Below are positions 137 to 15,820 of a stretch of 39,420 bases of DNA, piece by piece. The notes beneath the pieces were generated by a model, which saw only the letters and a program-made list of their open reading frames with translations, had not been told where the DNA came from and did not search any database. The first letter of the stretch is position 1. The number at the start of each line of letters is the position of its first letter. This DNA is from Pseudomonadota bacterium (lineage in GTDB: Bacteria; Desulfobacterota; Desulfobacteria; Desulfobacterales; RPRI01), in assembly GCA_043825875.1 (NCBI GenBank), contig JBDRRF010000089.1, positions 1 to 39,420 of the forward strand, read 5' to 3'. Made by a program: the position numbers and the translations under genes.

Positions 137-1450
137 GTGAAGATAATAAAAATTAGGCTTTTTAATATTTTAGGGTTGTCGCTGCTTGTTCTACTCTTGG
201 GTGGTTCATTGCTGGCTATGGATTTACCCAAGGTGATCGATAATACCAACTGCGGCCAGTACAAAGACCTGCTTATACCGGTTATGTACCGGGCTGTTGA
301 AAGGGGTGAGTGGGTTGTTACACCTGGGAAAATAAACTTTGACTACAAACTTCCCAAAAGCTTTCTTGAGGCAAGCCCAAAGAATGAAGGGCAATTCGGC
401 ATAAATCCGAATGGCAATTTAATAGAAATAAATTCTAACAAAAGCGTATCGCATAATTTCTACGGTCTTCCTTTTCCCGAAATTGATTCTAAAGATCCTA
501 TGGCAGGTGATAAGATTATGTGGAACTTCGTTTTTGCGCAAGACCGTATGATGGGTAGAAAAGAGCGATTTCATTATAGATGGGTAAATAATAATGGTGA
601 AGAACGATATTTGCTTTCTATTTGGTACAACTTATATATGTACAGCCGGCCACCAGGTCAGGAAATAAAAAATCCTGATAATGTTCTTTTTTATGAAATT
701 ACGAATCTTACAGAACCTATGAGTATGAAAGGAACAAATACCTTGACCGCTATTTATATGGACGATAGACCGGACCTTAGTTATGCATATGTGCCTGCTA
801 TTCGTAGAATTCGGCAGACAGGTTCCACGACACGCTCGGATCCATATATGGGATCTGATGGATGGATGGATCTGCAGAATGGGTGGGCCGGGAAAAACTC
901 TTCGATGGAATGGAAGTATGTGGGAGAGAAAACAATTCTTGTAGGTTTTACTAGTCCGGATATGATTCCGGTAGCAGATATGCCGGATGGAAGCATTACG
1001 ATTAAATATCCATTTAGCGACCACTTTAAACTCAACTATGAAACCCAGGGGTGGCAGGGTGTCGCATGGGCACCGGCACCAGGCACTGTTACTTATGTTC
1101 CCAGAAAGGTCTGGGTTGTAGAACAGATGCCTAAAGATCCTTATTATAGCTGGGGATTGCATCTAAATTATATTGATCAGGAAACTTATACCATCTTTTA
1201 CAAGGAGGTATATGATAGATCCGGTAAATTCCGGACATGGACCTGTACTTTTCGTCACTACAATGAATCGCCAAGCGGGAAAAACAATATTGGTGCTCAA
1301 TATGATGTTATGTTCAACATAGACGAAGTACTTCATCATGCATCAGTTGCCGGCACGAAACCGTATCCTGACGCCAGATTATTTTTGCCTGCTTCAAAAA
1401 TGGACCCCGGCTTTTTTAGCACAAATAATTTTATACAGTTATCCAAATAG
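137..1450 (+). CDS. DUF1329-family secreted protein (outer-membrane lipoprotein-sorting/LolA-like fold)
   Basis: GTG start after AAGGAGG; N-terminal signal peptide; motifs GLPFPEID..DP.AG.KIMWN, YVPAIRRIRQ, PKDPYY..G, YIDQET, YDRSGKF typical of DUF1329. Confidence 0.85.
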   Translation: MKIIKIRLFNILGLSLLVLLLGGSLLAMDLPKVIDNTNCGQYKDLLIPVMYRAVERGEWVVTPGKINFDYKLPKSFLEASPKNEGQFGINPNGNLIEINSNKSVSHNFYGLPFPEIDSKDPMAGDKIMWNFVFAQDRMMGRKERFHYRWVNNNGEERYLLSIWYNLYMYSRPPGQEIKNPDNVLFYEITNLTEPMSMKGTNTLTAIYMDDRPDLSYAYVPAIRRIRQTGSTTRSDPYMGSDGWMDLQNGWAGKNSSMEWKYVGEKTILVGFTSPDMIPVADMPDGSITIKYPFSDHFKLNYETQGWQGVAWAPAPGTVTYVPRKVWVVEQMPKDPYYSWGLHLNYIDQETYTIFYKEVYDRSGKFRTWTCTFRHYNESPSGKNNIGAQYDVMFNIDEVLHHASVAGTKPYPDARLFLPASKMDPGFFSTNNFIQLSK

Positions 1451-1538
1451 AATGGTTTCGTGAATAGTCAGTTTTATAAAGAAATATTATTGGATAATTA
1501 AATCAAGTCAACATATTAAACATAAGGAGACTTTGATC

Positions 1539-2822
1539 ATGGTTCATAGTGCAGGACATGGGAAAAACAACGACGTGCCGACCATACCCAAGTCGCAGCC
1601 TGCGGTCGTTTGGTGGGCATGGACCGGAGTTGCCTGGCTGGTGTTCTGGGCCTACGTGCTGATCCGCTGGGTGACCGGGCCGTACTTCACGCCCGTGCCG
1701 ACCGGAGCGGTCGACCCACCGGGCTGGATGAACATGATTATGACTGTCTGGCAGGTCGCTAATTACCCGCTCCTCGCCATCGGCATCTACTTCTTCGTCA
1801 TCAAGCCGTGGCGACGCAATCGCACCATTCCGTTAGATGGTATGCTTATAATCGCATTCATGTTAATGTCGTTAGGGGACTCATGCTCGAACTTCTTCGG
1901 CTACTGGTACACGGTAAATTCGCACTTTTTCAACATGGGGTCGTTCATCAACGATATCCCCGGCTGGATGGGCTTCGGCCGGCCCGGGGCGCAGGTGCCG
2001 TGGGCGATATTTTTTCACCCGTTCGAGTATACGATCGGCTTTTTTGCCTTCTGTTTCATCGGCAGCGGCCTCATGAACTTTTTCAGGACACGATTCAACC
2101 TGAAGCCGCTCATGCTGATCATAGTCGTGTTTCCGGTCTGCATGGTGTTTGACCTCGTGATCGAGGGGCTTTTCCAAACCCTGGGCTTCTATACGATGGC
2201 CGGAGGGAAAATCTCCTTCTTCCCCGATACCTACGAAAAATTCCCGTTAATCGAGACATTCTTCATCGCGCTGATGGCCGTCTCGGTCATATCACTGCGC
2301 TACTTCAAGAACGACAAGGGGGAGACGCTCGTCGAACGCGGGCTCAACTCGATGGTCATCAGCGACGTGAAAAAACAGCTTGTACGTTGCCTGGCCCTCA
2401 TCGGTGTCACCCAGTGCATCTTCCTCTTCACCTACAACATCCCGATCGCCGCTTATATGGGTTCAAATCCGGGCCCGTGGCCGACCGACGTTATATCGCG
2501 TCCGTACTGGAACGACGGCCTGTGCGGTGCCGGTACTGACCGCCTTTGCCCTGGCCCCGGAGTGCCGCTTACCCAGCAGGCGTGGGTGACCACCTTGCCG
2601 GCCGGACAACAAGTGCCGGAGGAAGACTGGATTTCCAGATCTTTCGAACCTGCTACCGGGAAAGCCCTCCGTAGGGATGACGGCATGCGCAATCCTGAGT
2701 TCAGCGACGGTAAATGCCGCCCGTTTAATAGCCGCTTCATGGGCCGCGAAAGTAAAGACAGGTGTGACACCTTATTGTGCATTGAAGGAATAAAACCGAA
2801 TTTACCCGACTGGAACTGGTAG
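1539..2822 (+). CDS. AveC/DUF5135 spirocyclase-family membrane protein with Cys-rich C-terminal extension
   Basis: Multi-TM; motifs P.V.WWAW.G, YNSH.FNMGS...DIPGW, FDLVIEG, KFPLIE, LRYFKNDKGETLVERG, GLCGAGTDRLCPGPGVP. ATG at 1539 chosen by alignment with the paralog start at 38095 and RBS AAGGAG. Confidence 0.8.
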   Translation: MVHSAGHGKNNDVPTIPKSQPAVVWWAWTGVAWLVFWAYVLIRWVTGPYFTPVPTGAVDPPGWMNMIMTVWQVANYPLLAIGIYFFVIKPWRRNRTIPLDGMLIIAFMLMSLGDSCSNFFGYWYTVNSHFFNMGSFINDIPGWMGFGRPGAQVPWAIFFHPFEYTIGFFAFCFIGSGLMNFFRTRFNLKPLMLIIVVFPVCMVFDLVIEGLFQTLGFYTMAGGKISFFPDTYEKFPLIETFFIALMAVSVISLRYFKNDKGETLVERGLNSMVISDVKKQLVRCLALIGVTQCIFLFTYNIPIAAYMGSNPGPWPTDVISRPYWNDGLCGAGTDRLCPGPGVPLTQQAWVTTLPAGQQVPEEDWISRSFEPATGKALRRDDGMRNPEFSDGKCRPFNSRFMGRESKDRCDTLLCIEGIKPNLPDWNW

Positions 2823-2893
2823 TGATTTAATAGCCGCTTCATGGCCTTCATAAGCAAATATCCGGGCGTCCCGATGATCGCTTGCGCCATGTG

Positions 2894-2919
2894 GCGCGGG
2901 GCTTCCCCCGTGTTTTTTT
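2894..2919 (+). terminator. Rho-independent terminator
   Basis: GCGCGGGG-CTTC-CCCCGTGT hairpin followed by a T tract. Confidence 0.65.
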
Positions 2920-2942
2920 AAATAAGACATTGCTTAATGATT

Positions 2943-2958
2943 TGGCACTTTTTTGGCT
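2943..2958 (+). promoter_or_regulatory. sigma54 (-24/-12) promoter
   Basis: TGGCACTTTTTTGGCT: GG 2944-2945, N10, GC 2956-2957. Confidence 0.75.
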
Positions 2959-2988
2959 CAGGTAATGAAACTAAGGAGGCAAAATATA

Positions 2989-3282
2989 ATGAAACTTCTG
3001 GAGATCATAGCCGTTCAGGCATCCGGCCATTTTAAAGAGCAGGCCCGCCAATATTTGATTCAATTTTGCCGCACCTTCAAAGAGCCGACTCTCTCGGAAC
3101 TGAAACCTTATATTAATTCTGCCTTCAGCGGAGATATTGCTGTAATGCTTTTATGGCAAAAACTGGAGTTCACAGGCACTAAAACTGATGTGGGGCAGAA
3201 CCTATCTAGTGCTTTGAAGAGTTACGGTCTGGTTGACCATACTTGCTGGATCATGATAGAAGATCAATGTATAGCGAAATAA
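2989..3282 (+). CDS. small conserved hypothetical protein (97 aa), paralog of 25061..25342
   Basis: ATG 2989 after AAGGAGG; MKLLEIIAV..SGHF.EQARQYL..FC and GLVDHTCW shared with the second copy. The TTG at 2953 lies inside the sigma54 promoter. Confidence 0.75.
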   Translation: MKLLEIIAVQASGHFKEQARQYLIQFCRTFKEPTLSELKPYINSAFSGDIAVMLLWQKLEFTGTKTDVGQNLSSALKSYGLVDHTCWIMIEDQCIAK

Positions 3283-3336
3283 ATATGTAACATAGAAAGA
3301 TGGATTTACGAATGTGCAAAAAAAGGGGGTGAATTC

Positions 3337-4101
3337 ATGATTGGAAATTGGTTGGAAATTGGTCACAATGCCGGTGGCGCTGTCGGACATCCAGTTTATC
3401 CATGGGTTTTTGAAATTGGCTCGTATGCGGCCTGGATAATCATTGCTGCAATTTTTGTCAGAAGCTATCGAAGAACGGGTGAGCTAAGTCTTTATGCATT
3501 GATATTTATTGGTGCGACGACCATGTTTTGGCTTGAGTTTCCGGCAGACTGGGGTGCATTCTTAATATACTCACCAAAGTTTACCCTTTTTCCTATTGAG
3601 TTGCCATTCACCACCCCAAACAAGCCCACATGGATGCCGGCAGCGTATGGATGGTACTTTCTTGCGATTTATTCTTTGATATTGTTTTGGGTCGATAAGT
3701 TGCGCGCAGCCAAGCCACACATGTCCAGAGTTCTTGCGGTTGCGATGATCGCTACTCCGTTCTTTTATGCGTGGAACATGATGGTGGAAGGCTTTTCTGC
3801 ACTTGTTGGTTGGTGGACTTATCACGAGGTCTTTGGGCCCGCCATTACCTTTACGCGTGGAACTTATCCGCTGGTGTTTCCTGTGATCCCATTCACAATC
3901 TATGGTGTCATCCAGACCCTGATGCTGATATGGAAAACATCTGACGGTAAGCACTATATAGAGCAGATCGCGGGTGCCCACACCGCCCCAATCGGGCATG
4001 GCAAGGAGTTGCGCCGCGCACTGGCCTGGATCATTGCTATGAATTTAATTTTCGGCATGTTTGCTCTGTCCACGTTTCTTTTTAGATTAATGATCAGTTA
4101 G
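3337..4101 (+). CDS. AveC/DUF5135-like membrane protein (short form)
   Basis: Multi-TM; FWLEFPADWG.FLIYSP, TTPNKP, WNMMVEG...GWWTY, GPA, YPL motifs. Confidence 0.7.
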   Translation: MIGNWLEIGHNAGGAVGHPVYPWVFEIGSYAAWIIIAAIFVRSYRRTGELSLYALIFIGATTMFWLEFPADWGAFLIYSPKFTLFPIELPFTTPNKPTWMPAAYGWYFLAIYSLILFWVDKLRAAKPHMSRVLAVAMIATPFFYAWNMMVEGFSALVGWWTYHEVFGPAITFTRGTYPLVFPVIPFTIYGVIQTLMLIWKTSDGKHYIEQIAGAHTAPIGHGKELRRALAWIIAMNLIFGMFALSTFLFRLMIS

Positions 4102-4198
4102 CAATCTGTCGCCGTGCCCATCATCGGCATGCGTTAGGCACCGGAAACGAATTCCGCAAGGCCGACCAATTATCTGCTTATAAAATATAGAGAAAATT

Positions 4199-4972
4199 AT
4201 GGAACACCATGAACAGATACCTATACTAATAGGGAAAGGTGCCCGGATTGTAGATCGGGGAACCTTCATCGTATTCATTGCTTTGGTTATATGGTTATTG
4301 ATTGATACCAGTAAACGTCGAGAATTGAGTATATCCGCTCTTTGCACCATCGCTGGGTTAAGTATTTTTTGGCAAGAGTTTTATGCGGACTGGGGGGTTT
4401 ATCTATTGTGGAGCAACTCTTTTAAACTTATGCCGTGGGGTTCTACGCTTTGGACTACACCGAATAAGCCTTGGTTTGTAATTGTTGCATATCCATTGTT
4501 CATGTGTTTTAGTATTGGAACAATGTTGGCGCTCTGCCGTAAAGTATTAGCTAAACGCCCAAATAATAACCGATTTCTCATTTGCCTGCTCACTGCCGGC
4601 ATCTGCTTGATAGCAATTAACACATTAATTGAATATTTCGCAGTGTCAGGCTTTGGCGTTTGGGGCTATGTCAGTGCAATCGGCCCCGCCCTTGAAACCG
4701 GGCATGCTTTACAACCTTTACTTTATCCTAATATTCCTTTTGGTATTTGGGGGGCGGTTATTTGTTTCCTGATTTTAAGTCAAAGCGCGAATGGGCGGCC
4801 AAAATTCGAATCCATTACAAAACCGGACAACTTTTCAGCGGGCTGGCAGAGGGAGACTGCACGTGCGATTGCCTGGATATTTGTTTGGAATGTCAGTTAC
4901 TGGTTAATACTGTGTACGCCACTAATTATTACTCGTGAATTACTTGGTCGGCATAATGCATTAGTGCCTTAA
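4199..4972 (+). CDS. AveC/DUF5135-like membrane protein (short form)
   Basis: Paralog of 3337..4101: FWQEFYADWG.YL, WTTPNKP, IEY...GVWGY...GPA, QPL. Confidence 0.7.
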   Translation: MEHHEQIPILIGKGARIVDRGTFIVFIALVIWLLIDTSKRRELSISALCTIAGLSIFWQEFYADWGVYLLWSNSFKLMPWGSTLWTTPNKPWFVIVAYPLFMCFSIGTMLALCRKVLAKRPNNNRFLICLLTAGICLIAINTLIEYFAVSGFGVWGYVSAIGPALETGHALQPLLYPNIPFGIWGAVICFLILSQSANGRPKFESITKPDNFSAGWQRETARAIAWIFVWNVSYWLILCTPLIITRELLGRHNALVP

Positions 4973-5006
4973 ATGGGAAATTAAACCTTAAATCAAGGGC
5001 TTAATG

Positions 5007-5101
5007 AATGATCTTATCCCTACATATCTTTGAACCGCAGGGAAACATAAAGGCTTTCCGGAAAAGTTGGACCAGGCTGATTAAGAAAATCTACGAGGTG
5101 A
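5007..5101 (+). pseudogene. remnant of the C-terminal part of an IS91-like (rolling-circle) transposase
   Basis: Translates (with a frameshift) to DLIPT..EPQGNIKAFRKSWTRLIKKIYEV, matching the recalled W.RLI.KIYEVDPL motif of IS91-like transposases; cut off before DPLxCxxC. Confidence 0.55.
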
Positions 5102-5104
5102 CTT

Positions 5105-6058
5105 ATTAGCATCAAAACTTTTCAAAAGCAGGACCAAACTAATTTTTGCTCTCCGATAATCGGGTGGGCAATATTGGGCATAATCGCCACTATCTTTTCG
5201 CTTTCCATATTTGGTCAGTGGATATTTTCCGCTGCAGAATTTATGGCCGTTCCTATAACCTCATTAGACGCAATGCCGAAAGCTGACATTTTTAAGATTC
5301 GTATATTTGAAGTCATAAGCAGCAGTATAGCCTTGATTGCCTTGTATATATTTCTTATCCGTCCCTGGCTTAAGACAGGCCGCGCTCCAATCCTCGGACT
5401 AACGCTTATTGGCGCACTAATCAGTTATGTGATTGATACAACCGTGAATTATCATGGTTACTTTATGGCCTGGAATGTTCATTCGATCAACTGGGGCACA
5501 TGGGCAGCCTTCTTCCCCGGTCACACCGGACCTACCCGCTTCGCGGAAGCATTATTCTGGGGACCTCCGATGTATCTCTACTTCGGCGTACTTCTCGGCC
5601 TCATTCAGTACATGGTAATTCATACAGCGCAAAAGCGCTTTGGCTTCTCGCTTGTAGCTGCCGTTCTCACGTCTATGGTAGTTGCATTTTTCCTTGATTT
5701 GCTGGCCGAGTGGGGCATTATCTTTTTCACCCAAGCTTATGCCTGGGCAAGGACAATAAGCTGGCTCACGCTATTGCCCGGTTCTCAATTCCAGTTTCCG
5801 CTGTATGAATCATTTGCGGTAGCTATATATGGAACGATATATTCCTCGCTAATCAAATCGTCCAAAGAAAACAGAATCTCTTACATCGAGCAAGGGGTGG
5901 ATCGGCTCCCGGGTGCACTGCAATTACCTGCGCGATTCTTTGCGGCAACCGGTCTGGCTAATGTAATAACAGCCATCTATTTTGGCACCTTCTTTTTATT
6001 TTCGTGCTATGCCAATTCTCAAGCTGCGCTGCCGCATTATTTGATGTTTTCAAAATGA
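5105..6058 (+). CDS. AveC/DUF5135-like membrane protein; start uncertain (ATT 5105 or TTG 5174)
   Basis: Multi-TM; DTTVNY....AWN...INWGTW..FFPG, FFLDLLAE, QFPLYE, SYIEQG. Frame is open from 5102 and PIIGWAILG aligns with PAVVWWAWTG of the paralogs. Confidence 0.7.
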   Translation: MSIKTFQKQDQTNFCSPIIGWAILGIIATIFSLSIFGQWIFSAAEFMAVPITSLDAMPKADIFKIRIFEVISSSIALIALYIFLIRPWLKTGRAPILGLTLIGALISYVIDTTVNYHGYFMAWNVHSINWGTWAAFFPGHTGPTRFAEALFWGPPMYLYFGVLLGLIQYMVIHTAQKRFGFSLVAAVLTSMVVAFFLDLLAEWGIIFFTQAYAWARTISWLTLLPGSQFQFPLYESFAVAIYGTIYSSLIKSSKENRISYIEQGVDRLPGALQLPARFFAATGLANVITAIYFGTFFLFSCYANSQAALPHYLMFSK

Positions 6059-6135
6059 GAATTATAACCGAAAAAATAACTGTTTTTACCGCTGCCTGGA
6101 AGACTGCTTTGAGACCTTATTTTGTAGCAATCATT

Positions 6136-6328: not shown

Positions 6329-6330
6329 TT

Positions 6331-7893: not shown

Positions 7894-7922
7894 CTCCTAT
7901 TTAATATGATTTTATATATCAT

Positions 7923-7975: not shown

Positions 7976-8033
7976 ATCATATTATTGCTTGCTATGTTTA
8001 TATAACTATCTGTATATAAAAGCATAAATGCTT

Positions 8034-8049: not shown

Positions 8050-8146
8050 AAGACTATAAAAAGCTATATATAAATTAAAATGAAATACCTGAAGATGAAA
8101 GCCTTTGATTTGTTGATAACATAATCGTCATTAAGGAGGGTAAGAA

Positions 8147-9859
8147 ATGGAAAAGTATGATTTTGTAATCGTTGGTGGAGGGCACAATGGGTTATCAACT
8201 GCTGCCTACCTGGCTAAGTCAGGATATACGGTAGCAGTGGCCGAGGCGCGGGTTGAGGCCGGCGGATGTATGGACTTTTCCGAAGTCAGGGCAGGTTGCA
8301 TCATTCAGCCACATGCTCTTATAAGTTATGCGAACGCATCTCCAGGCATGGATCATCTGGATCTTTGGAGGTTTGGGCTTCGTTTTGCGCCAGTTAAAGG
8401 GCCGTTTATGCTGGTTAACTCGGATGACAGGCCTGTTCTGGGCCTTCATCCCCAAGACCCCGAAATGACCCGCAGGGCCTTTGAGGTTTTAAAAACGTGG
8501 TCGGTAAAGGATGCTCAGATATGGGAGAAGTTTGCATATGATTTAATCCCCCATATGAAGGATATATTGCGATCAATATACTGGGTTCCCCCATGGCCGC
8601 AGGATCTTGAGTATGAGCCTGAGGATCTCCCATGGTACCAAGTACTCAAAAAGGCCATGCCGCAACTGTTTAGTCCCGATTGGCTCGAGTTGAGCCTGGT
8701 TGAACTTATGGACGAACTTATGGAATGCGGACCCATGAAAGCCGCAATGATGTTTCAAGTCTACTATCAGGGAGTAGCACCGCATTGGCGGAAGCTGGCG
8801 ATCCCCGCCTTTGGAACCTATCTCTTGATGAATTATTCTGATGGAATGTTTGTAGGCGGTATGCATATGTATGCTCATGCAATCATCCGTTGCGCCATGC
8901 ACCACGGCGCCAAAATCCTCACCAACTCGCCTGTGGAAGAGATTATAGTGAAAGATAACAAAGCAGTGGGTATTCGTCTTTCAGATAGCGCTCAATACAA
9001 AGAGAAGCTCATCATGGCTAACAAGGCCGTGATAAGTTCTGTGGATACTCAGCAGACTTTCTTAAGGCTGGTCGGTTCCGATCATATAGACAAGTCATTG
9101 AAACAAAGGGTAGCGGACCTGGATATGAGATCCGGTTCCTGCGTCTACACGCATATTATTGCTAAAGATTACCCCAGATGCAAGGGGGAAGCGGGCAAAT
9201 TGATGGCCGAGTTTGACTTGCCGCCTGCTGCATATATTTACCCCATGGATGATACCAAAGGTTATATGGATTATATTCGGGATGTGGAGGGGTTTAGAAA
9301 CAGTGGAAAATTCGGTCCCCATCTGGCCGGGGGCGGCTATGCCAATGTAACGGCCTTAGATCCCACAATAGCTCCAAAGGGCTATACTGTCCTGGGTGGC
9401 TTTCAGACCAATGTTCCGCCTCCTGAATATCATTGTGACGGACCTGATGCCATTTCCTTTGAGAAAAAGGAGGAGTTTAACAATATGATCAAGGAAATGG
9501 TATGTCAGATGGCGCCGAACATGAGAGAAGACATAGTGTATTTCAATAGTAATACTCCACTTGAAGATGAGTTTCGCAATGCCGGACTTGGTGGTGGTGC
9601 ATGGTGCGGGCCTGCCGAGACCGCAGACCAGTGGTGGAGCAACCGGCCACTGCCGGAACTATCGAGATACCGTGCGCCGATAGAGAACCTTTACCTTGCT
9701 CATCAGTCACAATATCCCGGTGGCCTTTGCCTGATGGCGGTTGCATACAACCTGATGCATATCCTGATAGATGATGGGGTGGTGGAGCCTAAAGCCTGGT
9801 GGTATCCCTCACCGTGGCACGTTAAGGACGGAGACAAGACAATACCCCGAATCGGCTGA
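8147..9859 (+). CDS. FAD-dependent oxidoreductase, phytoene dehydrogenase-like (COG1233; CrtO/CtmA-like)
   Basis: VIVGGGHNGL..AAYLAKSG..V.V.E....GG Rossmann motif; C-terminal RPLPELSRYRAPIENLYL...YPGG; RBS AAGGAGG. Confidence 0.9.
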   Translation: MEKYDFVIVGGGHNGLSTAAYLAKSGYTVAVAEARVEAGGCMDFSEVRAGCIIQPHALISYANASPGMDHLDLWRFGLRFAPVKGPFMLVNSDDRPVLGLHPQDPEMTRRAFEVLKTWSVKDAQIWEKFAYDLIPHMKDILRSIYWVPPWPQDLEYEPEDLPWYQVLKKAMPQLFSPDWLELSLVELMDELMECGPMKAAMMFQVYYQGVAPHWRKLAIPAFGTYLLMNYSDGMFVGGMHMYAHAIIRCAMHHGAKILTNSPVEEIIVKDNKAVGIRLSDSAQYKEKLIMANKAVISSVDTQQTFLRLVGSDHIDKSLKQRVADLDMRSGSCVYTHIIAKDYPRCKGEAGKLMAEFDLPPAAYIYPMDDTKGYMDYIRDVEGFRNSGKFGPHLAGGGYANVTALDPTIAPKGYTVLGGFQTNVPPPEYHCDGPDAISFEKKEEFNNMIKEMVCQMAPNMREDIVYFNSNTPLEDEFRNAGLGGGAWCGPAETADQWWSNRPLPELSRYRAPIENLYLAHQSQYPGGLCLMAVAYNLMHILIDDGVVEPKAWWYPSPWHVKDGDKTIPRIG

Positions 9860-9890
9860 TACTATAAAGATAAATTAAAGGAGGTACAAT

Positions 9891-11630
9891 ATGTCAAGCG
9901 CTACGAATAATGCAATTGATAAACTGGTTCCCTATAAACGCGATGCTGTGGGGGCGATCCCCGAGTTTCCGATGGAATCTGAATTCGATGTGGTGATTAT
10001 TGGCGGGGGCCCCAATGGGCTTATTGCCGGTGCGTATCTGGCTCGTGCGGGCTTAAGTGTGATTGTGCTTGAAAAGCGCACGGAAGTCGGCGGCGGGCTG
10101 GCTACAGAAGAAGTTCTTTTCCCGTGCTATTATACCCACACCCATGCCATTTATCATATGATGACGGATTATATGCCCCTTTTGCAGGATTTTGATCTTT
10201 CAAAACATGGGGTGAGTTTTTATACTCCCAATTACCAGACCGGGATGGTCTACGAAGACGGATCATCCTTTGTCCTGTGCAGAAGCATTGACGATACCGC
10301 CGATTCCCTGCGCCGGCTGTCCCATAAAGATGCCGAAACTTTTTTGAAGTTAATGCGGACATGGGAGCCGATGTTCGATGAGATTCTGGGGCCTGCAACC
10401 TACTATCCGCCCATGCCCGCACTGGAACAGGTTGTCAGTATGCAGAGGACTGGGATAGGTAAAGCTTTGATTGATCTTACGGAAAAAACACCTCTTGAGG
10501 TGATTACAGAGTTATTTGAGAATAAAAAGATACAGGCCGCCATGCTCTATTGTGTCTGCATGTTTGGACTCGACCCCAATGGCGCAGGAATGGGATTCTT
10601 AATCCCCCTGTTGCTGCAAAGGGCGGGGTGGAACAAAGCCTATTGCAACGGCGGTTCACACCGATTAGCTGCTGCCCTGGCGAGGGAGATTATGGCAGCG
10701 GGGGGTATGATCATGAGTCCTGCGCCGGTTACCAAAATACTTGTCGCAAATGGTCGTGCAACGGGCGTGGAAATGTATGACGGCCGTCAGATAAAGGCGA
10801 AAGCTGTTCTCTCCAGCCTTGATCCGCAACAGACTTTCCAGGAGATGGTGGGACCGGAGCATCTGGATGGCTACCTGAATCAGACATCCAAAGCCTGGCA
10901 GTATGAAAAAAAGAGTTTTTTTACTACACATGCAGTGCTGTATGAGCCGCCCAAGTACAAGGCTGATGACGCCTGGGTAGATAAAGCTTTTATGACGGTA
11001 ATGGGATTTGAGAATGTGGACGAACTCTTGCAATACTGGAAGGGTGTTAAAGACGGGGATATTTCAGATCAACTGGCCGGGCACTCTACCTGTGAGACTT
11101 TAATTGATCCGCATCTGGCCAGAGTTCCTCCCGTTTCTATAACACCGGTAATGCTGGATACCTCCAAGCTCAAGCCGAGAGCACAGCATATAGCATTCTT
11201 CCAGATGCATGCTCCTTACGATCTTAAGGGCGGGTGGGAGAAGAGAACTGATGAAATTACCGAAAAGGTTCTTGAGAGATGGCGCAGGTATGCTCCGAAC
11301 ATGACAAAAGAGAATATGTACATGGTGCACAGCGAGACACCTGTGGATATCGAAACGCGCCTTGCAAGCATGCGCCGGGGCTCGTTCAAGCATGGAGATT
11401 ATATTCCGTTTCAGATGGGCATGTTCCGGCCCAATGAACAGTGTTCGTCCGGCCGGACACCGATTGAGGGTCTTTACACCTGCGGTGCTTCGAACTATCC
11501 CGGCGGTCTGGTACTGGGAGGGCCGGGGTATCTTGCAGCCAATGCTGTAGCTGAAAATTTAGAAATCAAAAAATGGTGGAAACCGACCAAGAATATGCGC
11601 CGGTATGAAAGGGTGTATCTGAGCAAATAA
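9891..11630 (+). CDS. FAD-dependent oxidoreductase, phytoene dehydrogenase-like (COG1233; CrtO/CtmB-like)
   Basis: VVIIGGGPNGLIAGAYLARAG..V.VLEKR.EVGGG; GGSHRLA; RTPIEGLYTCGASNYPGG...GGPGY.AA. Confidence 0.9.
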   Translation: MSSATNNAIDKLVPYKRDAVGAIPEFPMESEFDVVIIGGGPNGLIAGAYLARAGLSVIVLEKRTEVGGGLATEEVLFPCYYTHTHAIYHMMTDYMPLLQDFDLSKHGVSFYTPNYQTGMVYEDGSSFVLCRSIDDTADSLRRLSHKDAETFLKLMRTWEPMFDEILGPATYYPPMPALEQVVSMQRTGIGKALIDLTEKTPLEVITELFENKKIQAAMLYCVCMFGLDPNGAGMGFLIPLLLQRAGWNKAYCNGGSHRLAAALAREIMAAGGMIMSPAPVTKILVANGRATGVEMYDGRQIKAKAVLSSLDPQQTFQEMVGPEHLDGYLNQTSKAWQYEKKSFFTTHAVLYEPPKYKADDAWVDKAFMTVMGFENVDELLQYWKGVKDGDISDQLAGHSTCETLIDPHLARVPPVSITPVMLDTSKLKPRAQHIAFFQMHAPYDLKGGWEKRTDEITEKVLERWRRYAPNMTKENMYMVHSETPVDIETRLASMRRGSFKHGDYIPFQMGMFRPNEQCSSGRTPIEGLYTCGASNYPGGLVLGGPGYLAANAVAENLEIKKWWKPTKNMRRYERVYLSK

Positions 11631-11641
11631 AGAAAGGTTCC

Positions 11642-11692
11642 GGTGGGGTGTAAAACCCCGCCCTACCGTAGGGCGGCATTTTATATGCCGCC
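11642..11692. repeat. back-to-back pair of GTAG-type REP palindromes
   Basis: GGTGGGGTGTAAAACCCCGCCCTAC (reverse complement GTAGGGCGGGG...) adjacent to GTAGGGCGGCATTTTATATGCCGCC; may also act as a terminator or RNA stabiliser. Confidence 0.6.
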
Positions 11693-11747
11693 AAGAAACT
11701 TCTCTAATCAGGGGGAAGGTAGTCGTCAACTATGAAATGTACCAACC

Positions 11748-11821
11748 TGTCATTTCGACCAACGGGAGAAATCTTTATAAATCTTTTAAAAGCAAGATCT
11801 CTCCTTTCAGTCGAGATGACA
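11748..11821. repeat. TGTCATT-type palindromic intergenic repeat
   Basis: TGTCATTTCGAC...GGAGAAATCT / AGATCTCTCC...GTCGAGATGACA inverted arms. Confidence 0.65.
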
Positions 11822-11870
11822 AATGATGCATGACACGACAGTATGATTAACGCAAAAAGAGATTCAGGCT

Positions 11871-12076
11871 ATGGAGAGAAATCCAAAAATATATTGTCCC
11901 GATGAAAAATACAAGGGCCTTCGGCCGCAGCCGGGGATTATGCAACGGATATGTCCATCGTCAAGGATATCTCCGAAAGTCCTACCTTCATTGTCGAATG
12001 TCGCTGTTGCAATCAGGTCGGCTATGGACAAATCCAGTTCGGGGTCTATGGCAAGCAACCCAAATATGCACCGTAA
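11871..12076 (+). pseudogene. chimeric deletion remnant: N-terminus of a paralog of 13204..14196 joined out of frame to the C-terminus of a DUF7064-like gene
   Basis: First 25 codons MERNPKIYCPDEKYKGLRPQPGIMQ match MERDPKLYWPDEKYQGLRPQPGVMQ; another frame (11942-12076) reads ATDMSIVKDISESPTFIVECRCCNQVGYGQIQFGVYGKQPKYAP*. Confidence 0.7.
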
Positions 12077-12088
12077 CTACGGGAGACT

Positions 12089-13153
12089 GTGATGGCTGTA
12101 GTGAATTTAGATACTGCCCAGAGCAGGCTTAAGGATTGGTTCGCGAGCAAGCTGCCGCAGGCAAGCGATGTGGTGATTTCATCATTAAGGAGGCCCGACT
12201 CCGGTGCCTCCAACGAAACATTTCTTGTCGAGCTGCAGTGGCGTTGTGGCAGCGACACCCGCGTGGAAAAACTAGTGGTGCGCTGGCCGCCTGGGGGGTA
12301 CAAGTTGTTTCCTGACTATGCCTACGACATGACGCAGCAATACACACTGCTGTATCGTCTTGGCGATACCAGCGTACCGGTCCCCCCGGCGCGTTGGCTG
12401 GAGGAGGACGCTGCGGTGATCGGCGCCCCCTTTTATATTGTTGACCAGGTCGATGGGTGGGTTCCGGGCGACTTTCCGCCCTACCAAATCGCCGGCCCGC
12501 TGTTCGAGGCGAAGGCCGCAGAGAAGGCCAAGACCTGGTGGAGCGCCGTCGATACCATGGCTGCCATCCATACCCTGGACTGGCGAAAGGCTGGCCTGGA
12601 TTTCCTCGGCGTGCCTGGCGCCGGCAAGAACTACATAGAGCGGCAGGTTGCCTATTACGAAGAGGTGTTCCAGCAAAACAGGGAGCCCATGCCGGGCATC
12701 CTGAAAACCAGCCGGGACTGGCTCTTAAAAAACAGCTTCGAACCCAGGCACCTTTGCTTATGTTGGGGCGATGCCCGGTTGGGCAACATGATCATTCGCG
12801 ACCATCAGGTCTCGGCGGTACTGGATTGGGAAATGGCGTGTATAGGCGACCCGGAATCCGATCTCGGTTGGTTTGTCCACATCGATTGGGCCACCAGCGT
12901 CGGTCGACCGGCCTCGCCTTTCCCGCGCATGACGGGTCTTCCAAGCATGCAGGAGACTATCGCACACTACGAACAGGCGACAAAACGGAAGGTGGAAAAC
13001 CTGCATTACTACGAGGTGTTTGCTACTTGGCGCCTGGCCATTCTTTTCACCCGCATGGAGAACAACGAAAGTTATATGGAGCGCTCCAAGAACAAGAAGG
13101 GCTTCATCATCTGGCCCCATTTTGAAAAGCTGCGGAACCTTTTGGGTCTGTAG
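12089..13153 (+). CDS. phosphotransferase family protein (APH/ACAD10-11/LvaA-like kinase)
   Basis: GASNET, LVVRWPP, VPVP..RWLEED..VIGAPFY, LCWGDARLGNMI, VLDWEMA..GDPESDLGW; visibly GC-richer than its neighbours. Confidence 0.9.
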   Translation: MMAVVNLDTAQSRLKDWFASKLPQASDVVISSLRRPDSGASNETFLVELQWRCGSDTRVEKLVVRWPPGGYKLFPDYAYDMTQQYTLLYRLGDTSVPVPPARWLEEDAAVIGAPFYIVDQVDGWVPGDFPPYQIAGPLFEAKAAEKAKTWWSAVDTMAAIHTLDWRKAGLDFLGVPGAGKNYIERQVAYYEEVFQQNREPMPGILKTSRDWLLKNSFEPRHLCLCWGDARLGNMIIRDHQVSAVLDWEMACIGDPESDLGWFVHIDWATSVGRPASPFPRMTGLPSMQETIAHYEQATKRKVENLHYYEVFATWRLAILFTRMENNESYMERSKNKKGFIIWPHFEKLRNLLGL

Positions 13154-13203
13154 CTGCTTATTAACCATTAACAGAACAAAAAGAAATAAGGGAGGAAGAT
13201 ACT

Positions 13204-14196
13204 ATGGAGAGAGATCCAAAATTATATTGGCCTGATGAAAAATACCAGGGTCTTCGACCTCAGCCGGGGGTAATGCAGTTGTGGTTTCATGATGGTATTT
13301 TCACTAACGGATATTCTATGCAACTTATGTTTCATACTGCTCCTGCCAAGTCCAGTATTTGGCTTGACGTCTGTGGACCGGATGGAAAAAATACCAATGT
13401 AGTAACTTTTTTTGATACGGATACTATTTCCGCAAAAACGGAATACTGTGATGTCAGGATGGGCGATAATTATGTGTTTGGTAAATTCCCTAAATACGAG
13501 ATGCATTTTCGTCATGAAAACATGGGCGCGGATTTTGTCTACGAATGCCTGACGCAACCGATTTTTGAACCCCCCGACGGGGTTTATCAGGGAAGAGAGC
13601 AAGGCCCGCCTACACCATTATATTTTGGATATGCCGTTCGCCCCCGATGCCGGGTTACCGGCAAGCTGATCATAGATGGTAAAGAAATCCCGGTAGAGGG
13701 AGAGGGCTATGGAGATCATGAATGGAAATACGCTCCTCCAGGTCACTTCCAGCACCATTGCTGGACATGGGGAAAGGTATATCTTCCCGAACATACGCTG
13801 GTTTGGTGGGATGCGGTACTTAACCCTACCTTTGGTTTTCAAAGATGTAAGTGGCTTTGGTCTTTAAGCGGGGATAAGCTGTTCGAATATTCAAATCATG
13901 CCGCCATGTATGTGGAATTAGTCGACCTTGAATTAACGGAGTCTGGCGCCAGCCTGCCTAAAAAGATTATTCTTACTATTGATGAACCAAGGATTAAGGG
14001 AACGGCAACCTATAACATTAAGCACATAGCAAAAAACGTACCTATTGACGCTTTTGGCAGTTTTAAAATTGATCCTGAAACATGGATAGGCCTAAGGCAT
14101 TATGCCCGGTTTGTATCCGAATGTCATTCCGATTTTGAAATAGATGGTAAAAGGATTGTAGCAGACTCATTGGAATCCCATGAAGTGGGAAAATGA
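13204..14196 (+). CDS. CrtC/AttH-like (hydroxyneurosporene synthase / lipocalin-like) beta-barrel protein
   Basis: LWFHDGIFTNGYS, CDVRMGDN, PRCRVTGKL.IDGK...VEGEGYGDHEW...WTWG; RBS GGAGG. Confidence 0.7.
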   Translation: MERDPKLYWPDEKYQGLRPQPGVMQLWFHDGIFTNGYSMQLMFHTAPAKSSIWLDVCGPDGKNTNVVTFFDTDTISAKTEYCDVRMGDNYVFGKFPKYEMHFRHENMGADFVYECLTQPIFEPPDGVYQGREQGPPTPLYFGYAVRPRCRVTGKLIIDGKEIPVEGEGYGDHEWKYAPPGHFQHHCWTWGKVYLPEHTLVWWDAVLNPTFGFQRCKWLWSLSGDKLFEYSNHAAMYVELVDLELTESGASLPKKIILTIDEPRIKGTATYNIKHIAKNVPIDAFGSFKIDPETWIGLRHYARFVSECHSDFEIDGKRIVADSLESHEVGK

Positions 14197-14221
14197 TAAA
14201 TTTACATAAAATGGGGGAACC

Positions 14222-14503
14222 ATGGCTGAAGAAAAAGAAATTAGTGCAAGCATGCTGATGAAATCGACTGGTCTGGGAGAGACTATGCTTTATGCCGAAC
14301 CGGTAAGCTGTAATATAGTAGGAGATATTCTAGTTCTTCATGTCAAAACGGTTTCACCGGTGCAGTGGCATATAAGAACCGGGATTACATATAGGGGGAT
14401 ACTAAAGCTATTGTGGTGTATCTTTAAAAATTTCTCCGTAGTCAAATTCCTGTTTTCCGGTTTTATAAGACTTAAAAATCCCAGATTGCCCGAGGAATTT
14501 TAA
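14222..14503 (+). CDS. small conserved hypothetical protein
   Basis: 93 aa, RBS GGGGAA; STGLG.T.L and PVQWH.R motifs; amphipathic C-terminus. Confidence 0.65.
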   Translation: MAEEKEISASMLMKSTGLGETMLYAEPVSCNIVGDILVLHVKTVSPVQWHIRTGITYRGILKLLWCIFKNFSVVKFLFSGFIRLKNPRLPEEF

Positions 14504-14526
14504 AGAGTTTAAAGGCTGAAGTGAGA

Positions 14527-14663
14527 AGAATATGGTACGCTGTTAGGTTTTTAAGTTCATATAGCGCCTCTTGCCAACTTAACTTTCTAATTTGAAGGCT
14601 AAACCTTAAATCCTAGCAGCGTCCCATTTCTAAACCCCCTAGCAGCGTCCCATTTCTAAACCC
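14527..14663. repeat. imperfect inverted repeat with a 26-bp tandem duplication of its right arm
   Basis: AGAATATGGTACGCTGTTAGGTTTTTAAGTT pairs with AACCTTAAATCCTAGCAGCGTCCCATTTCT; CCTAGCAGCGTCCCATTTCTAAACCC occurs at 14612-14637 and 14638-14663. Confidence 0.7.
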
Positions 14664-14691
14664 CTATCATTTCCTGTTAGCTATCATTCCC

Positions 14692-14720
14692 TTGACATAA
14701 TATCGTTTTCTATTTAAAAT
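14692..14720 (+). promoter_or_regulatory. sigma70 promoter
   Basis: TTGACA-N17-TAAAAT. Confidence 0.6.
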
Positions 14721-14836
14721 TATTTCCACTAAAAGCAATGTCTTATCAAATCAAATCGGGCGTTTTGTCGTCAATCGACTGATGCGGCTCGTCGGGTAGG
14801 GTGATGGAAACCCTTAAAACATAACGAGAGGTGAAT

Positions 14837-15820
14837 ATGGACATCAATTTTAAAGCCAAACATGAAGTACCGATGTGGAACGAAACCCGCTGGGGTGGAT
14901 GCTACAATCCTGAGCAAGGTGTTGGACTCTATTTGCATGCCGGTCGACTGCGCGGTAATCTGGATTGGTGGTGGGCCCAAACAATTATCTACATGCCTGA
15001 TGATCGTGTTGCAGTAGAGCGTTCCTGGGTGCGTAACTCTGTCGAAGACGGCGTTAAAACCTCCAGCCTTGATCTTCGAGTAAGGAACAAAGGATGGACT
15101 GCTCATTATGACGGCATCGTCGAATTGACAACAACTGTGGCTCTATCTAAAGCACCGCGTGGCTGTATCGCACCTTCTATTCCGGCGAGTTTCAACATTA
15201 CCGCCGACGAGAGTCGACCTTGGTGGGATATGTACGTGGGTATGCCTGCTTTCAAGGAAGGGGAGTCCGGTACGCATCTTGAGCAGCCGGGACAAGGCAA
15301 GGGCACATTACAGGTTGGAAAAGAAAGTTATCTTCTGGATGGCGTCACATACTATGACCACTCCTCAGGCATACGCGACTGGACCAAATCCCACTCGCAT
15401 AACTTTGCTCATATTGTGATGCCGGACTATACGATTCATGCGGTCACAGTCTATGCAACGCCGACCAAGGCCCATGCTCACTTTGGTGTGTTCTCACCCA
15501 TAGAAGGCAAACCGCTCAATATTATTCAGTCGACTATGCCTAAATTAACCGATGTTTTTAGTATGCATGATCAGTATGATTGGATACTTCAAACCGAGGG
15601 TGAAAAACCGCAAACCTTCCGTGTCGAGGTCATGCACACCTTCCCTATGACTATTACTAACGAAAACGACAATATCAATGGGTTTTATTGGGATGCTCCA
15701 GGCGACCCAATGTTCTTTACTGAATGCCAGGTCAAAGTCACTGCGCCTGACGGAGCTGTCGGTTATGGGCACATTGAGCGTACCAACCGAAGGAGCTGTG
15801 TGCTTCACCGTGATAGCTAA
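14837..15820 (+). CDS. DUF7064/DUF7065-like (AttH/tocopherol-cyclase-like) protein
   Basis: WNETRW..., GLYLHAGR, HLEQPG...GTL.VG.E...LDG..YYDHSSGIRDW, DGAVGYGHIER; ATG 14837 after GAGGTG (GTG 14831 alternative). Confidence 0.65.
   Translation: MDINFKAKHEVPMWNETRWGGCYNPEQGVGLYLHAGRLRGNLDWWWAQTIIYMPDDRVAVERSWVRNSVEDGVKTSSLDLRVRNKGWTAHYDGIVELTTTVALSKAPRGCIAPSIPASFNITADESRPWWDMYVGMPAFKEGESGTHLEQPGQGKGTLQVGKESYLLDGVTYYDHSSGIRDWTKSHSHNFAHIVMPDYTIHAVTVYATPTKAHAHFGVFSPIEGKPLNIIQSTMPKLTDVFSMHDQYDWILQTEGEKPQTFRVEVMHTFPMTITNENDNINGFYWDAPGDPMFFTECQVKVTAPDGAVGYGHIERTNRRSCVLHRDS

Follow-up and report, generated by a model that had tools for sequence, protein, structure and literature searches.

We analyzed a 39.4-kb stretch of DNA, contig JBDRRF010000089.1 in full (hereafter the window), from the 4.77-Mb, 99.8% complete genome of a member of the Desulfobacterales. 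Between positions 137 and 15820 lie genes for a secreted DUF1329 protein, four AveC-like membrane proteins, a pair of COG1233 flavoproteins, an APH-family kinase and two double β-barrel proteins. We lean toward reading this span as the core of an accessory, σ54-controlled island that takes up a hydrophobic isoprenoid-type substrate and activates it without oxygen. From these genes we infer the class of substrate, which reactions follow one another and in which direction they run, and that the DUF1329 and AveC-like proteins take part in uptake. Enzymatic detail on the anaerobic attack on inert isoprenoids (sterol side chains, terpenes, squalene, phytol, hopanoids and carotenoid residues) comes only from two denitrifying Betaproteobacteria. 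The island brings relatives of three enzyme types known from them into one regulated gene set of a sulfate reducer: an oxidase of allylic carbons with covalently bound flavin, a kinase for alcohols, and a barrel of the phosphate-lyase type. They are accompanied by a hydratase-like barrel and by envelope genes.

An initial annotation, made from the letters of the window alone, had listed these genes and proposed that they belong to an anaerobe. The host genome contains a dsrA gene that scores 619 bits against a cut-off of 393, which agrees with that proposal. The window holds 78 open reading frames (ORFs) of at least 80 aa; 36 were selected for Pfam scans, and 17 of those were also compared with NCBIfam. 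Each gene on the original list was found, including two gene remnants and two σ54 promoter-like sites. Consistent with a further statement of that annotation, no domain of an oxygenase, prenyltransferase, phytoene synthase or polyketide synthase appeared in the Pfam scans of the 36 ORFs. The span had also been described as one co-oriented cluster. The gene set stands, but a single operon does not, as the gene for a σ54-dependent activator (6331–7893, reverse strand, 520 aa) divides the span and diverges from the flavoprotein genes. This activator matches Pfam Sigma54_activat (2.8e-70) and HTH_8 and has an N-terminal sensor part without a family assignment.

For comparison, we assembled 78 loci with relatives of the second flavoprotein from species-representative genomes (Chloroflexota, Acidimicrobiia, Myxococcota, Binatia, Desulfobacterales and others) and 79 metagenome loci that contain kinase relatives. 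Samples of 251 genomes of the host class and 401 of the host phylum were also searched, and 16 congeners were probed with flavB. Gene calls in the compared loci came from a simple ORF picker that is unreliable at high GC content, and close relatives were counted as non-independent evidence.

The flavoprotein pair

The genes flavA (8147–9859, forward strand, 570 aa) and flavB (9891–11630, forward strand, 579 aa) encode the A-type and B-type subunits of a flavoenzyme similar to the limonene dehydrogenase CtmAB and to the delta-24 desaturase of sterol degradation. FlavA matches the Rossmann FAD/NAD families of Pfam, and the two products are tandem COG1233 paralogues with 28% identity over ~570 residues (E 3e-40). 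Each carries a histidine at the position of flavin linkage, His56 in FlavA (AGCIIQPHA) and His85 in FlavB (PCYYTHTHA), and His85-Ala86 is invariant in the family alignment. Across the 78 related loci, the histidine is retained in 85/85 A-type and 151/151 B-type matches that cover the site. Additionally, 68 of these loci have a flavA-type gene immediately upstream of the flavB relative; the remainder are mostly cut contigs. The CtmAB-like pair proposed initially is thus borne out by tandem paralogy, by the level of identity and by a flavin-linking histidine in both subunits. FlavA and FlavB would be expected to form a heterodimer.

These properties follow the published descriptions of the two known systems. 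CtmA and CtmB of Castellaniella defragrans are adjacent COG1233 proteins with 27% identity, encoded by genes of 1698 and 1650 nt, and their nearest relative is reported to be a protein of a sulfate-reducing deltaproteobacterium (PMC4109377). The α and β subunits of delta-24 desaturase are 26% identical, and in both this enzyme and CtmAB each subunit is described as bearing covalent flavin mononucleotide on the histidine of an N-terminal motif, G-F-L/R-X-N/S-T/L-H-A (PMC11061730). The same source places uncharacterized relatives of delta-24 desaturase in Acidimicrobiales and Deltaproteobacteria. CtmA/B and delta-24 desaturase are 34–38% identical to each other.

The island resembles the CtmAB system in having an adjacent pair of similar size, ~27–28% identity between subunits, a histidine in both, an oxygen-independent setting and an RND pump nearby. 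It differs in that the window has no CtmE/CtmF or CtmCDG, a σ54 activator replaces the LuxR-type regulator, and the motif around the histidine diverges. The likeness to the delta-24 desaturase of Sterolibacterium denitrificans lies in the identity within the pair, in the N-terminal histidine and in the distribution of the family, because FlavB relatives with 50–55% identity occur in the same taxa as the published relatives. In contrast to that enzyme, a desaturase dependent on a delta-22 bond already in place, FlavAB could desaturate or hydroxylate.

Assignment of FlavA and FlavB to bona fide CrtI, CrtD or CrtO was ruled out, as both fall far under the curated NCBIfam cut-offs. Against crtI_fam (cut-off 238.1), FlavB scores 84.9 bits and FlavA 42.5; against CrtO (cut-off 1000), FlavB reaches 194 and FlavA 122, the latter being FlavA's best hit. 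The nearest solved structures are remote (for FlavB 4rep, E 9e-13; for FlavA Rossmann-motif matches only). A check of the rest of the genome for carotenoid genes, as the initial annotation had suggested, did find a phytoene/squalene-synthase cluster, but it lies on a separate contig, C35 (L099, G000:C35:60000-78000, 4832–10760, one strand). This carotenoid-type cluster encodes a CrtI-like amine oxidase, a squalene/phytoene synthase, a polyprenyl synthase, an acyltransferase, a GT2 protein and a CruF-type Caroten_synth protein. A carotenoid-type cluster is therefore present, yet FlavA and FlavB do not group with its CrtI-like gene, which neither matches at E 1e-5.

A small gene travels with these pairs. 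The 93-aa protein encoded at 14222–14503 (forward strand), here orf93, belongs to no named family and is 61% identical to a copy beside a second flavoprotein pair on contig C70. It occurs in 7 of the 78 FlavB-relative loci, with 55–94% identity within the genus and 35–39% in four loci from other phyla (L059, L077, L083 and L090, titled Binatia and Myxococcales/Myxococcaceae). We conclude that orf93 is a real conserved gene that accompanies CtmAB-like pairs and not a remnant; its product may serve as an additional subunit or help in maturation. Separately, A/B pairs of this type stand in tandem arrays of two to three in Chloroflexota, Binatia and Myxococcota (L078, L079, L072, L065 and others), which suggests substrate diversification of the enzyme family.

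The kinase and the double-barrel proteins

Downstream of flavB, the gene at 12089–13153 (forward strand) encodes a 354-aa, stand-alone small-molecule kinase of ~40 kDa with a clear Pfam APH match (2.2e-25), as first annotated. Its best matches among solved structures are 9fsg (E 7.5e-36, residues 7–327) and 3ats (2.2e-34), followed by the kinase domain of ACAD11 (1e-22). An antibiotic kinase was rejected because the NCBIfam models for Mph (macrolide) and APH(3') (aminoglycoside) score far below their cut-offs. The initial annotation had modeled the enzyme on LvaA and the ACAD10/11 kinases. We replace that model with the pair formed by 25-hydroxysteroid kinase (25-HSK) and 25-phosphosteroid lyase (25-PSL), which fits better (PMC8449060, PMC11061730; PDB 9fzn/9g2i/9g4c). 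Relatives of the kinase with 41–47% identity (P0221-P0240) are fused to an SCP2 sterol-carrier domain, which is consistent with a lipid substrate for the subfamily.

The kinase is followed by two predicted double β-barrel proteins. Barrel 1 (13204–14196, forward strand, 330 aa; AlphaFold2 pLDDT 93.5) is of the CrtC/AttH/kievitone-hydratase type by Foldseek and by the Pfam matches of its family. Its own score against Pfam CrtC, 21.0 bits, is just under the cut-off of 22.5, and it has no NCBIfam match; among 60 aligned members of its family, 47 match CrtC, 20 the Diels-Alderase N-domain and 11 DUF7065. The family is small (339 representatives at E ≤0.001 among 1.84 billion). Foldseek places the model nearest to AttH (2ich, 3.5e-13, TM-score 0.68), kievitone hydratase (7a0t, 1.3e-12) and fungal decalin-forming cyclases, with 25-PSL further down (9g4c/9fzn/9g2i, ~6e-9, 9g4c at 6.1e-9, TM-score ~0.6). 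Barrel 1 shares with CrtC, kievitone hydratase and AttH the two-barrel fold (TM-score 0.62–0.68) and a G-x-G-Y-x-D-H-x-W stretch; it differs in being only 14–16% identical to the solved structures. Its membership is at the level of the superfamily.

Barrel 2 (14831–15820, forward strand, 329 aa; AlphaFold2 pLDDT 91.8) is of the DUF7064/DUF7065 type by Foldseek and by the families of its homologues. Its five best PDB matches in Foldseek are all chains of 25-PSL (5.5e-11 to 6.7e-10, TM-score 0.62–0.65). PF23212 or PF23213, the DUF7064 and DUF7065 families, are carried by 15 of its 53 homologues, which include metagenome-assembled genomes labelled Rhodocyclaceae, Steroidobacteraceae and Frankiales, and its Atlas feature score to DUF7064/DUF7065 and tocopherol-cyclase clusters is 0.96. 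The initial annotation had named two CrtC/AttH-type proteins. This holds for barrel 1 in both fold and family; barrel 2 belongs to the same fold class but, being of the DUF7064/DUF7065 kind, is not CrtC proper. Pairwise BLAST of barrel 1 against barrel 2, and of barrel 2 against the 25-PSL homologue of the closest relative, gave nothing significant.

Two more barrel genes, also noticed initially, survive as remnants in the 459-nt spacer between flavB and the kinase gene. One is a 5′ piece of a barrel-1-like gene (11871–11945, forward strand, 25 codons, 80% identity to the start of 13204–14196). The other is the 3′ end of a 25-PSL-like DUF7065 gene (11906–12076, forward strand, 58 codons and a stop), with 48% identity (E 3.7e-12) to the C-terminus of the protein encoded at L001:972-2063 in the closest relative. 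That protein is a full-length 25-PSL homologue, which matches PDB 9fzn at E 2.4e-29 over residues 2–361. The two remnants are in different frames, and the lyase remnant ends 13 nt before the kinase start; in the closest relative, the same spacer retains only the last few lyase codons. The position of the lyase remnant directly before the kinase gene implies that a true lyase gene formerly stood ahead of it and was later deleted. Barrel 2 is the sole lyase-like candidate that remains in the host genome.

The pairing of kinase and barrel genes is widespread. A DUF7064/DUF7065-type gene adjoins the kinase relative in 19 of the 79 metagenome loci (17 identified by tblastn and 2 by Pfam), on the same strand in 18 cases. 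Among the 20 closest kinase relatives (≥37% identity), 10 have such a neighbor. Both counts are lower bounds, because many contigs are short and tblastn is weak at this divergence. More distant kinases adjoin HAD hydrolases (8 loci), acyl-CoA dehydrogenases (4) and histidine phosphatases (2).

With the sterol enzymes, the island shares a ~40 kDa APH kinase beside double-barrel proteins, a full-length 25-PSL homologue in a relative with its remnant in the window, and a barrel 2 whose best solved fold is 25-PSL. Several features set it apart. The two gene types are adjacent here and in the 19 metagenome loci, unlike in S. denitrificans, for which a 2021 report had the lyase gene still unassigned and named no candidate near the kinase gene (PMC8449060); the lyase was still called putative in a 2024 account (PMC11061730). 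Here a sulfate reducer is the host, the barrel that is intact in the window resembles 25-PSL in fold only, and the window has no Mo-dependent C25/C26 hydroxylase, in place of which the hydratase-like barrel may supply the alcohol. Our literature searches did not find a paper on the 25-PSL structures (PDB release January 2026), and such a paper may already describe the pairing of kinase and lyase.

A paralogue of the kinase with 63% identity lies elsewhere in the genome (L017, G000:C41:60001-80000, 7324–19384) amid genes for a SnoaL-like protein, an aldehyde:ferredoxin oxidoreductase, an SDR, an FMN reductase and two Mo enzymes of 771 and 780 aa. [quoted passage not shown] The adjacency of Mo hydroxylase and kinase there recalls the order of S25DH and 25-HSK in the sterol pathway.

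Envelope genes and their recurrence

The first part of the span, 137–6058, would make up the envelope section of the island. The 437-aa product of 137–1450 (forward strand) is a secreted DUF1329/LolA-like protein with a signal-like hydrophobic segment at residues 8–26; it matches Pfam DUF1329 (PF07044) at 6.1e-36, with 124.9 bits against a cut-off of 23.1, and LolA_like at 1.6e-11. AveC1 (1533–2822, forward strand, 429 aa) is a long-form, polytopic AveC-like membrane protein with a Cys-rich C-terminal part (Pfam AveC_like, 5.3e-37). An Atlas structure comparison matches it to the AveC family (TM-score 0.77), with nearest clusters that are mostly actinobacterial, and its Atlas model gives a weak structural echo of Caroten_synth, the CruF-type hydratases (TM-score 0.40), which we take as a lead only. 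Two short-form proteins follow (3337–4101, 254 aa, with four transmembrane-like segments, and 4199–4972, 257 aa; both forward strand), and then a 294-aa AveC-like protein (5174–6058, forward strand; Pfam AveC_like 2.6e-21). A fifth AveC-like gene, AveC5 (38095–39411, forward strand; Pfam 5.1e-37), is again of the long form and reaches the end of the contig.

Three of these five genes match PF17198 directly (76.6–128 bits, cut-off 26.6). The 254-aa and 257-aa proteins have no direct AveC match in Pfam, and the latter's own Pfam match is a sub-cut-off hit to ECF_trnsprt; they are assigned by profile-profile comparison, in which the alignment of the short-form family matches that of the AveC-like family with 96.9% probability (hhalign, E 1.3e-10). 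Consistent with this, two short-form paralogues with 37–49% identity match PF17198 directly, the 49% one (L020:7836-8627) at 3.8e-11. The four AveC-like genes and a fifth at 38 kb that were first annotated are thus all accounted for, three by Pfam and two through the short-form profile and its paralogues. The AveC-like proteins have 3–5 transmembrane-like segments and the DUF1329 protein a signal, and the enzymes of the span have neither a signal peptide nor a transmembrane segment.

AveC itself is the dehydratase/spirocyclase of avermectin biosynthesis. The window proteins resemble it in that three pass the PF17198 threshold and an Atlas model matches the AveC family. They differ in their setting, which has no polyketide genes, a Gram-negative host, arrays of long and short forms, and placement after DUF1329. 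By analogy, they may instead be membrane hydro-lyases. Literature searches for AveC-like proteins or PF17198 gave nothing relevant, and we found no paper covering both AveC and DUF1329.

DUF1329 and DUF1302 are reported to confer fitness on fatty esters in Pseudomonas putida (bioRxiv 10.1101/2020.07.04.188060), and deletion of a Delftia DUF1329 gene led to poorer growth on phenanthrene (as cited in bioRxiv 10.1101/2024.12.15.628547). The families are the same here, the outer-membrane protein DUF1302 adjoins DUF1329 in sister loci as in those organisms, and the published phenotypes concern hydrophobic substrates. In contrast to the Pseudomonas and Delftia pairs, DUF1329 is here expanded to 14–33 copies per genome and coupled to AveC-like genes, and the pseudomonad partners are BNR and HAE3-type RND genes. 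The host genome has 14 full-length DUF1329 genes. Three congeners that carry flavB have 21–33 matches; two that lack it have 4 and 0. In four genomes of the genus, 8 of 24 AveC_like matches lie ≤1.5 kb downstream of a DUF1329 gene, against a chance estimate of ~2% per gene (about 30 DUF1329 genes in 4.5 Mb).

Some of the enzyme and envelope genes recur together in other clusters. AveC_like proteins are rare, being found in 2 of the 251 class genomes (both of the window's genus) and 3 of the 401 phylum genomes. Only two other AveC-positive genomes turned up among the 401; they belong to a different family, have 57–58% GC, and encode proteins 25–33% identical to those of the window. In one (L184), the co-oriented genes are DUF1302, DUF1329, an ORF of no assigned family, a pair of membrane ORFs, AveC_like, the gene for a COG1233 flavoprotein, that for an APH/EcKL-type kinase, and a further pair of membrane ORFs. 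One of this last pair matches the short AveC-like profile at 91%; of two short membrane ORFs of L184 tested against that profile, one does not match. The second (L183) has two DUF1329 genes, two AveC_like genes, DUF1302 and a GMC oxidoreductase, with an aldehyde dehydrogenase and a tandem COG1233 pair within 8 kb. Smaller versions occur in the window's own genus, with DUF1329, an AveC-like gene and a COG1233 flavoprotein on C2 and G008:C51, and with DUF1329, an AveC-like gene, an amine-oxidase flavoprotein, a ferredoxin and an aldehyde:ferredoxin oxidoreductase on C16. Together, L183, L184 and these own-genus clusters are the best evidence that ties the envelope genes to the flavoproteins.

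Searching from FlavB gave a narrower picture. Among the 78 loci, only L087, L092 and L098 hold an AveC-like, APH, barrel 1 or DUF1329 gene, and none of the three is from another phylum. In the class sample, flavB-like genes occur in 28/251 genomes and APH-like genes in 6/251, with both in 4. The co-occurrence that the initial annotation had called for therefore holds in part: AveC-like, DUF1329 and COG1233 genes recur in two genomes from a different family, with an APH kinase in one, but the FlavB loci contribute only 3 of 78.

The closest relative of the window places most of the enzymes side by side. Its FlavA and FlavB are 96–99% identical to ours and sit in the first of two adjacent units, in which an activator diverges from flavA, flavB, APH, barrel 1 and orf93, followed by DUF1302 and DUF1329. 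In the second unit, an activator diverges from a barrel-1-like gene (92% identity), the DUF7065 protein and an APH paralogue (56%). The genes for efflux, DUF1302/DUF1329, the flavoproteins and the kinase-lyase couple are found there within ~30 kb.

Proposed route, alternatives and genomic setting

From these parts, we propose a route. The secreted LolA-like DUF1329 protein would pass a water-insoluble compound to the four AveC-like proteins of the inner membrane, which would either transfer it inward or, as hydro-lyases embedded in the membrane, begin to convert it. In the cytoplasmic part of the island (8147–15820), barrel 1 would hydrate a prenyl-type double bond to give a tertiary alcohol, and the kinase would use ATP to phosphorylate that alcohol, as 25-hydroxysteroid kinase does. 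Barrel 2, acting like 25-PSL, would then eliminate phosphate to leave an alkene at a new position. Finally, FlavAB would oxidize the resulting allylic carbon, by hydroxylation with water or by desaturation, and so open the chain to further oxidation. Compared with the sterol route, the hydratase-type barrel would replace the Mo hydroxylase as the source of the alcohol, and the CtmAB-type flavoenzyme would replace the Mo C26 hydroxylase.

The initial annotation knew of no description of this combination. The logic of tertiary alcohol, phosphate ester, alkene and allylic oxidation has already been described for the cholesterol side chain (PMC8449060, PMC11061730), however, and gives the combination a precedent. 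The biochemical principle is thus known. In the literature searched, we found no paper on four features: that the three enzyme types stand together in a sulfate reducer, that a hydratase-like barrel is present, that kinase and barrel genes are widely paired, and that DUF1329 and AveC-like genes are associated with flavoproteins. The catabolic isoprenoid line that had been suggested gains from paralogous clusters that are clearly catabolic, from barrels in a fold class whose enzymes hydrate isoprenoid ends or carry out eliminations at them, and from dsrA; its substrate, direction and order are inferred. The paralogous clusters in the genome encode SDRs, old-yellow-enzyme/dienoyl-CoA-reductase-like proteins, aldehyde:ferredoxin oxidoreductases, Mo enzymes and SnoaL proteins.

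More tentatively, a broader generalization can be drawn. The APH kinase and DUF7064/DUF7065 pair may be a widespread, portable module for the ATP-dependent dehydration of tertiary alcohols, found beyond the steroid-degrading denitrifiers. Joined to DUF1302/DUF1329, to arrays of AveC-like proteins (membrane hydro-lyases or translocators) and to CtmAB-type flavoenzymes, it would form an undescribed locus by which anaerobes use hydrophobic isoprenoids, with a hydratase-type barrel replacing the Mo hydroxylase. We regard this joint claim as possible and decidedly less secure than the reading of the span itself. If the reading of the span is right, the island would provide a testable route that needs no molybdenum hydroxylase, genomic markers for anaerobic isoprenoid turnover in sediments and aquifers, and a first functional handle on the DUF1329 expansions and on AveC-like proteins outside polyketide synthesis. 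It would also be evidence for the kinase-lyase couple as a general gene pair and not a steroid specialty.

A number of observations weigh against an isoprenoid-activating island. For the flavoproteins, the likeness to CtmAB and delta-24 desaturase is drawn from published descriptions; only His-Ala of the published flavin motif fits in both subunits, plus the glycine in FlavA, and the remaining positions differ. The 36 scanned ORFs of the window include no ferredoxin or reductase like CtmEF. For the kinase, the likeness to 25-HSK is likewise drawn from published descriptions, and the title of 9fsg, its best structural match, reads only "aminoglycoside phosphotransferase-like protein". Barrel 2 matches 25-PSL by fold only: it has no Pfam match, phmmer and profile searches of the PDB sequences gave none, and identity is 12–13%. 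In addition, hhalign relates the barrel-1 family to barrel 2 with a probability of 23.7%, which is too weak to use. No intact DUF7065 match was found in the 99.8%-complete host genome, which retains only the remnant of a 25-PSL-type gene.

Gene order and distribution add to these points. The flavoprotein unit of the closest relative has no adjoining AveC array, and a congener (L003) has flavA, flavB, barrel 1 and orf93 with no kinase. Seven FlavB-relative loci were prepared for a scan of neighboring genes, of which three were left out on account of high GC and the ORF picker; in the four that were kept (51 neighboring ORFs scanned), the FlavB relatives outside the genus have no recurrent partner but FlavA. 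In the class sample, FlavB-like and APH-like genes outside the genus never share a contig, and the two genomes with both (G067 and G151) hold them on separate contigs. The L184 kinase is of a different APH subfamily from that of the window, and hidden Markov models of the barrel-1, barrel-2 and 358-aa families found no CrtC/DUF7064 barrel in L183 or L184. Finally, a terminator-like hairpin follows flavB and a σ70-like site precedes barrel 2, so that these genes may not be co-transcribed.

Several of the same observations would fit a patchwork of independent σ54 units in a recombination-prone region, in which the DUF1329/AveC, flavoprotein and kinase-barrel genes act on different substrates. 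We consider this alternative improbable, and it is the best placed of those examined. The missing AveC array of the closest relative and the missing kinase of the congener speak for it, as do the solitary FlavAB pairs of other phyla and the 14 DUF1329 genes and six near-identical activators that are shuffled over many clusters. Terminator-like hairpins stand after the DUF1329–AveC1 pair (2893–2914, forward strand, 9 pairs and then a T run) and after flavB (11658–11676, forward strand), the first half of the latter being kept in the flavB–APH spacer of the closest relative. The total number of such hairpins does not exceed that in shuffled sequence, so that their position alone is informative. 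They imply at least three transcription units in the span, with uncertain read-through into the kinase genes.

Base composition points to mixed origins as well. Against a genome average of 39.1%, GC content is 57.1% for the kinase gene, 55.4% for AveC1, 54.7% for AveC5, 49–50% for flavA and flavB, 48.8% for barrel 2 and 39.0% for orf93, so that the genes span 39% to 57%. Gene remnants lie between the units, and mobile or defense-type genes begin right after 15820: low-GC stretches (35–39%) at 15821–21600 and 31400–35600 contain Abi_alpha, GIY-YIG, AAA_14/DUF4143, KilA-N and ParE genes. The island is a mosaic, assembled horizontally in recent times from foreign genes. What argues against unrelated units is that the mix returns. 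DUF1329, AveC-like and COG1233 genes stand together in the two genomes of another family, co-oriented with an APH-type kinase in one of them, and again in the own-genus clusters on C2, C16 and G008:C51; the closest relative packs its efflux, DUF1302/DUF1329, flavoprotein and kinase-lyase units into ~30 kb.

A second alternative is that the genes are biosynthetic and tailor the cell's own isoprenoid lipids, such as the product of the carotenoid-type cluster on C35. Both CrtC-type hydratases and COG1233 enzymes belong to families well known for tailoring carotenoids, the genome does contain that cluster, and the faint Caroten_synth echo in the AveC1 model points the same way. Nevertheless, FlavA and FlavB score far below the CrtI, CrtO and CrtD models and do not match the C35 CrtI-like protein. 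The island lies apart from C35, is foreign in composition, and was not found in 13 of the 16 congeners probed with flavB. It has dedicated σ54 activators, with an efflux pump and secreted and outer-membrane proteins alongside, and we know of no step in carotenoid synthesis that uses a kinase and a phosphate lyase. We therefore think tailoring quite unlikely.

To much the same degree, we doubt that the island is an envelope-stress or detoxification response to membrane-active hydrophobic compounds that are not growth substrates. The window does encode a σ54-controlled OMF-MFP-RND pump with a similar activator, promoter block and small leader protein, and an RND pump is reported to contribute to monoterpene tolerance in C. 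defragrans (PMC6394551). In the degradation routes described so far, however, ATP-dependent dehydration and allylic oxidation are activation steps (PMC8449060, PMC11061730), the sister clusters carry full sets of dehydrogenases, reductases and aldehyde oxidoreductases, and the known monoterpene island combines efflux with catabolism (PMC4109377). It is very improbable that the kinase is a hydroxyacyl-CoA kinase of the LvaA/ACAD10/11 type in a side route of β-oxidation: ACAD11 kinase domains match, distant members adjoin acyl-CoA dehydrogenases in 4/79 loci and Family III CoA-transferases flank three closer ones, but the stand-alone kinases 9fsg and 3ats match better, the scanned ORFs of the window include no acyl-CoA dehydrogenase, CoA ligase or CoA-transferase, and the partner of the subfamily is a DUF7064/DUF7065 barrel and not an ACAD.

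The regulatory elements of the island are repeated in the window. Two σ54 promoter-like sites of the form TGGCAC-N7-GC lie in the span, as annotated at the outset, one just 5′ of a small ORF (2943–2957, forward strand) and one ~100 nt upstream of flavA (8034–8048, forward strand). A third, outside the span, begins a stretch (25015–30916, forward strand) with a small-protein gene (25061–25342) and the OMF-MFP-RND efflux genes. All three are intergenic and upstream of forward-strand genes; 0.93 sites are expected in the window, and 4 of 100 shuffles reach three. The strict consensus TGGCAC-N5-TTGCW has no match in the window, and looser patterns give mostly coding-region noise. The promoter regions of flavA and the efflux genes have further sequence blocks in common, and a regular expression for the shared block matches at 11 genomic sites, a number too small and a pattern too permissive for a regulon to be drawn from it. 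At each of these two regions an activator gene is divergent. The second (23272–24825, reverse strand) is 80% identical to the first, and the host genome has six such paralogues at 75–82% identity.

The end of the window falls at an assembly break. The last 43 codons of AveC5 (39283–39411) also open contigs C115 and C95 with 100% identity, which places the break within an AveC-like gene that is repeated. Beyond this point, the sequence of the window probably runs on into a unit of lipocalin-like, DUF1302 and DUF1329 genes. We also noted a soluble family of 358–360 aa with a weak Lipocalin_9 match, present in 14 copies in the genome beside AveC-like, DUF1302 and DUF1329 genes (L102:167-1243, L018:10604-11680, L101:3081-4163 and 11 more places in G000); hhalign relates the barrel-1 family to it with a probability of 16.3%, which is too weak to use.

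Lastly, the small soluble protein encoded at 2953–3282 (forward strand, true start probably ~2986), which matches no Pfam or NCBIfam family, is 63% identical to the product of 25061–25342. Each of the two is the first gene after a σ54 promoter-like site, one before AveC-like genes and the other before the RND pump.

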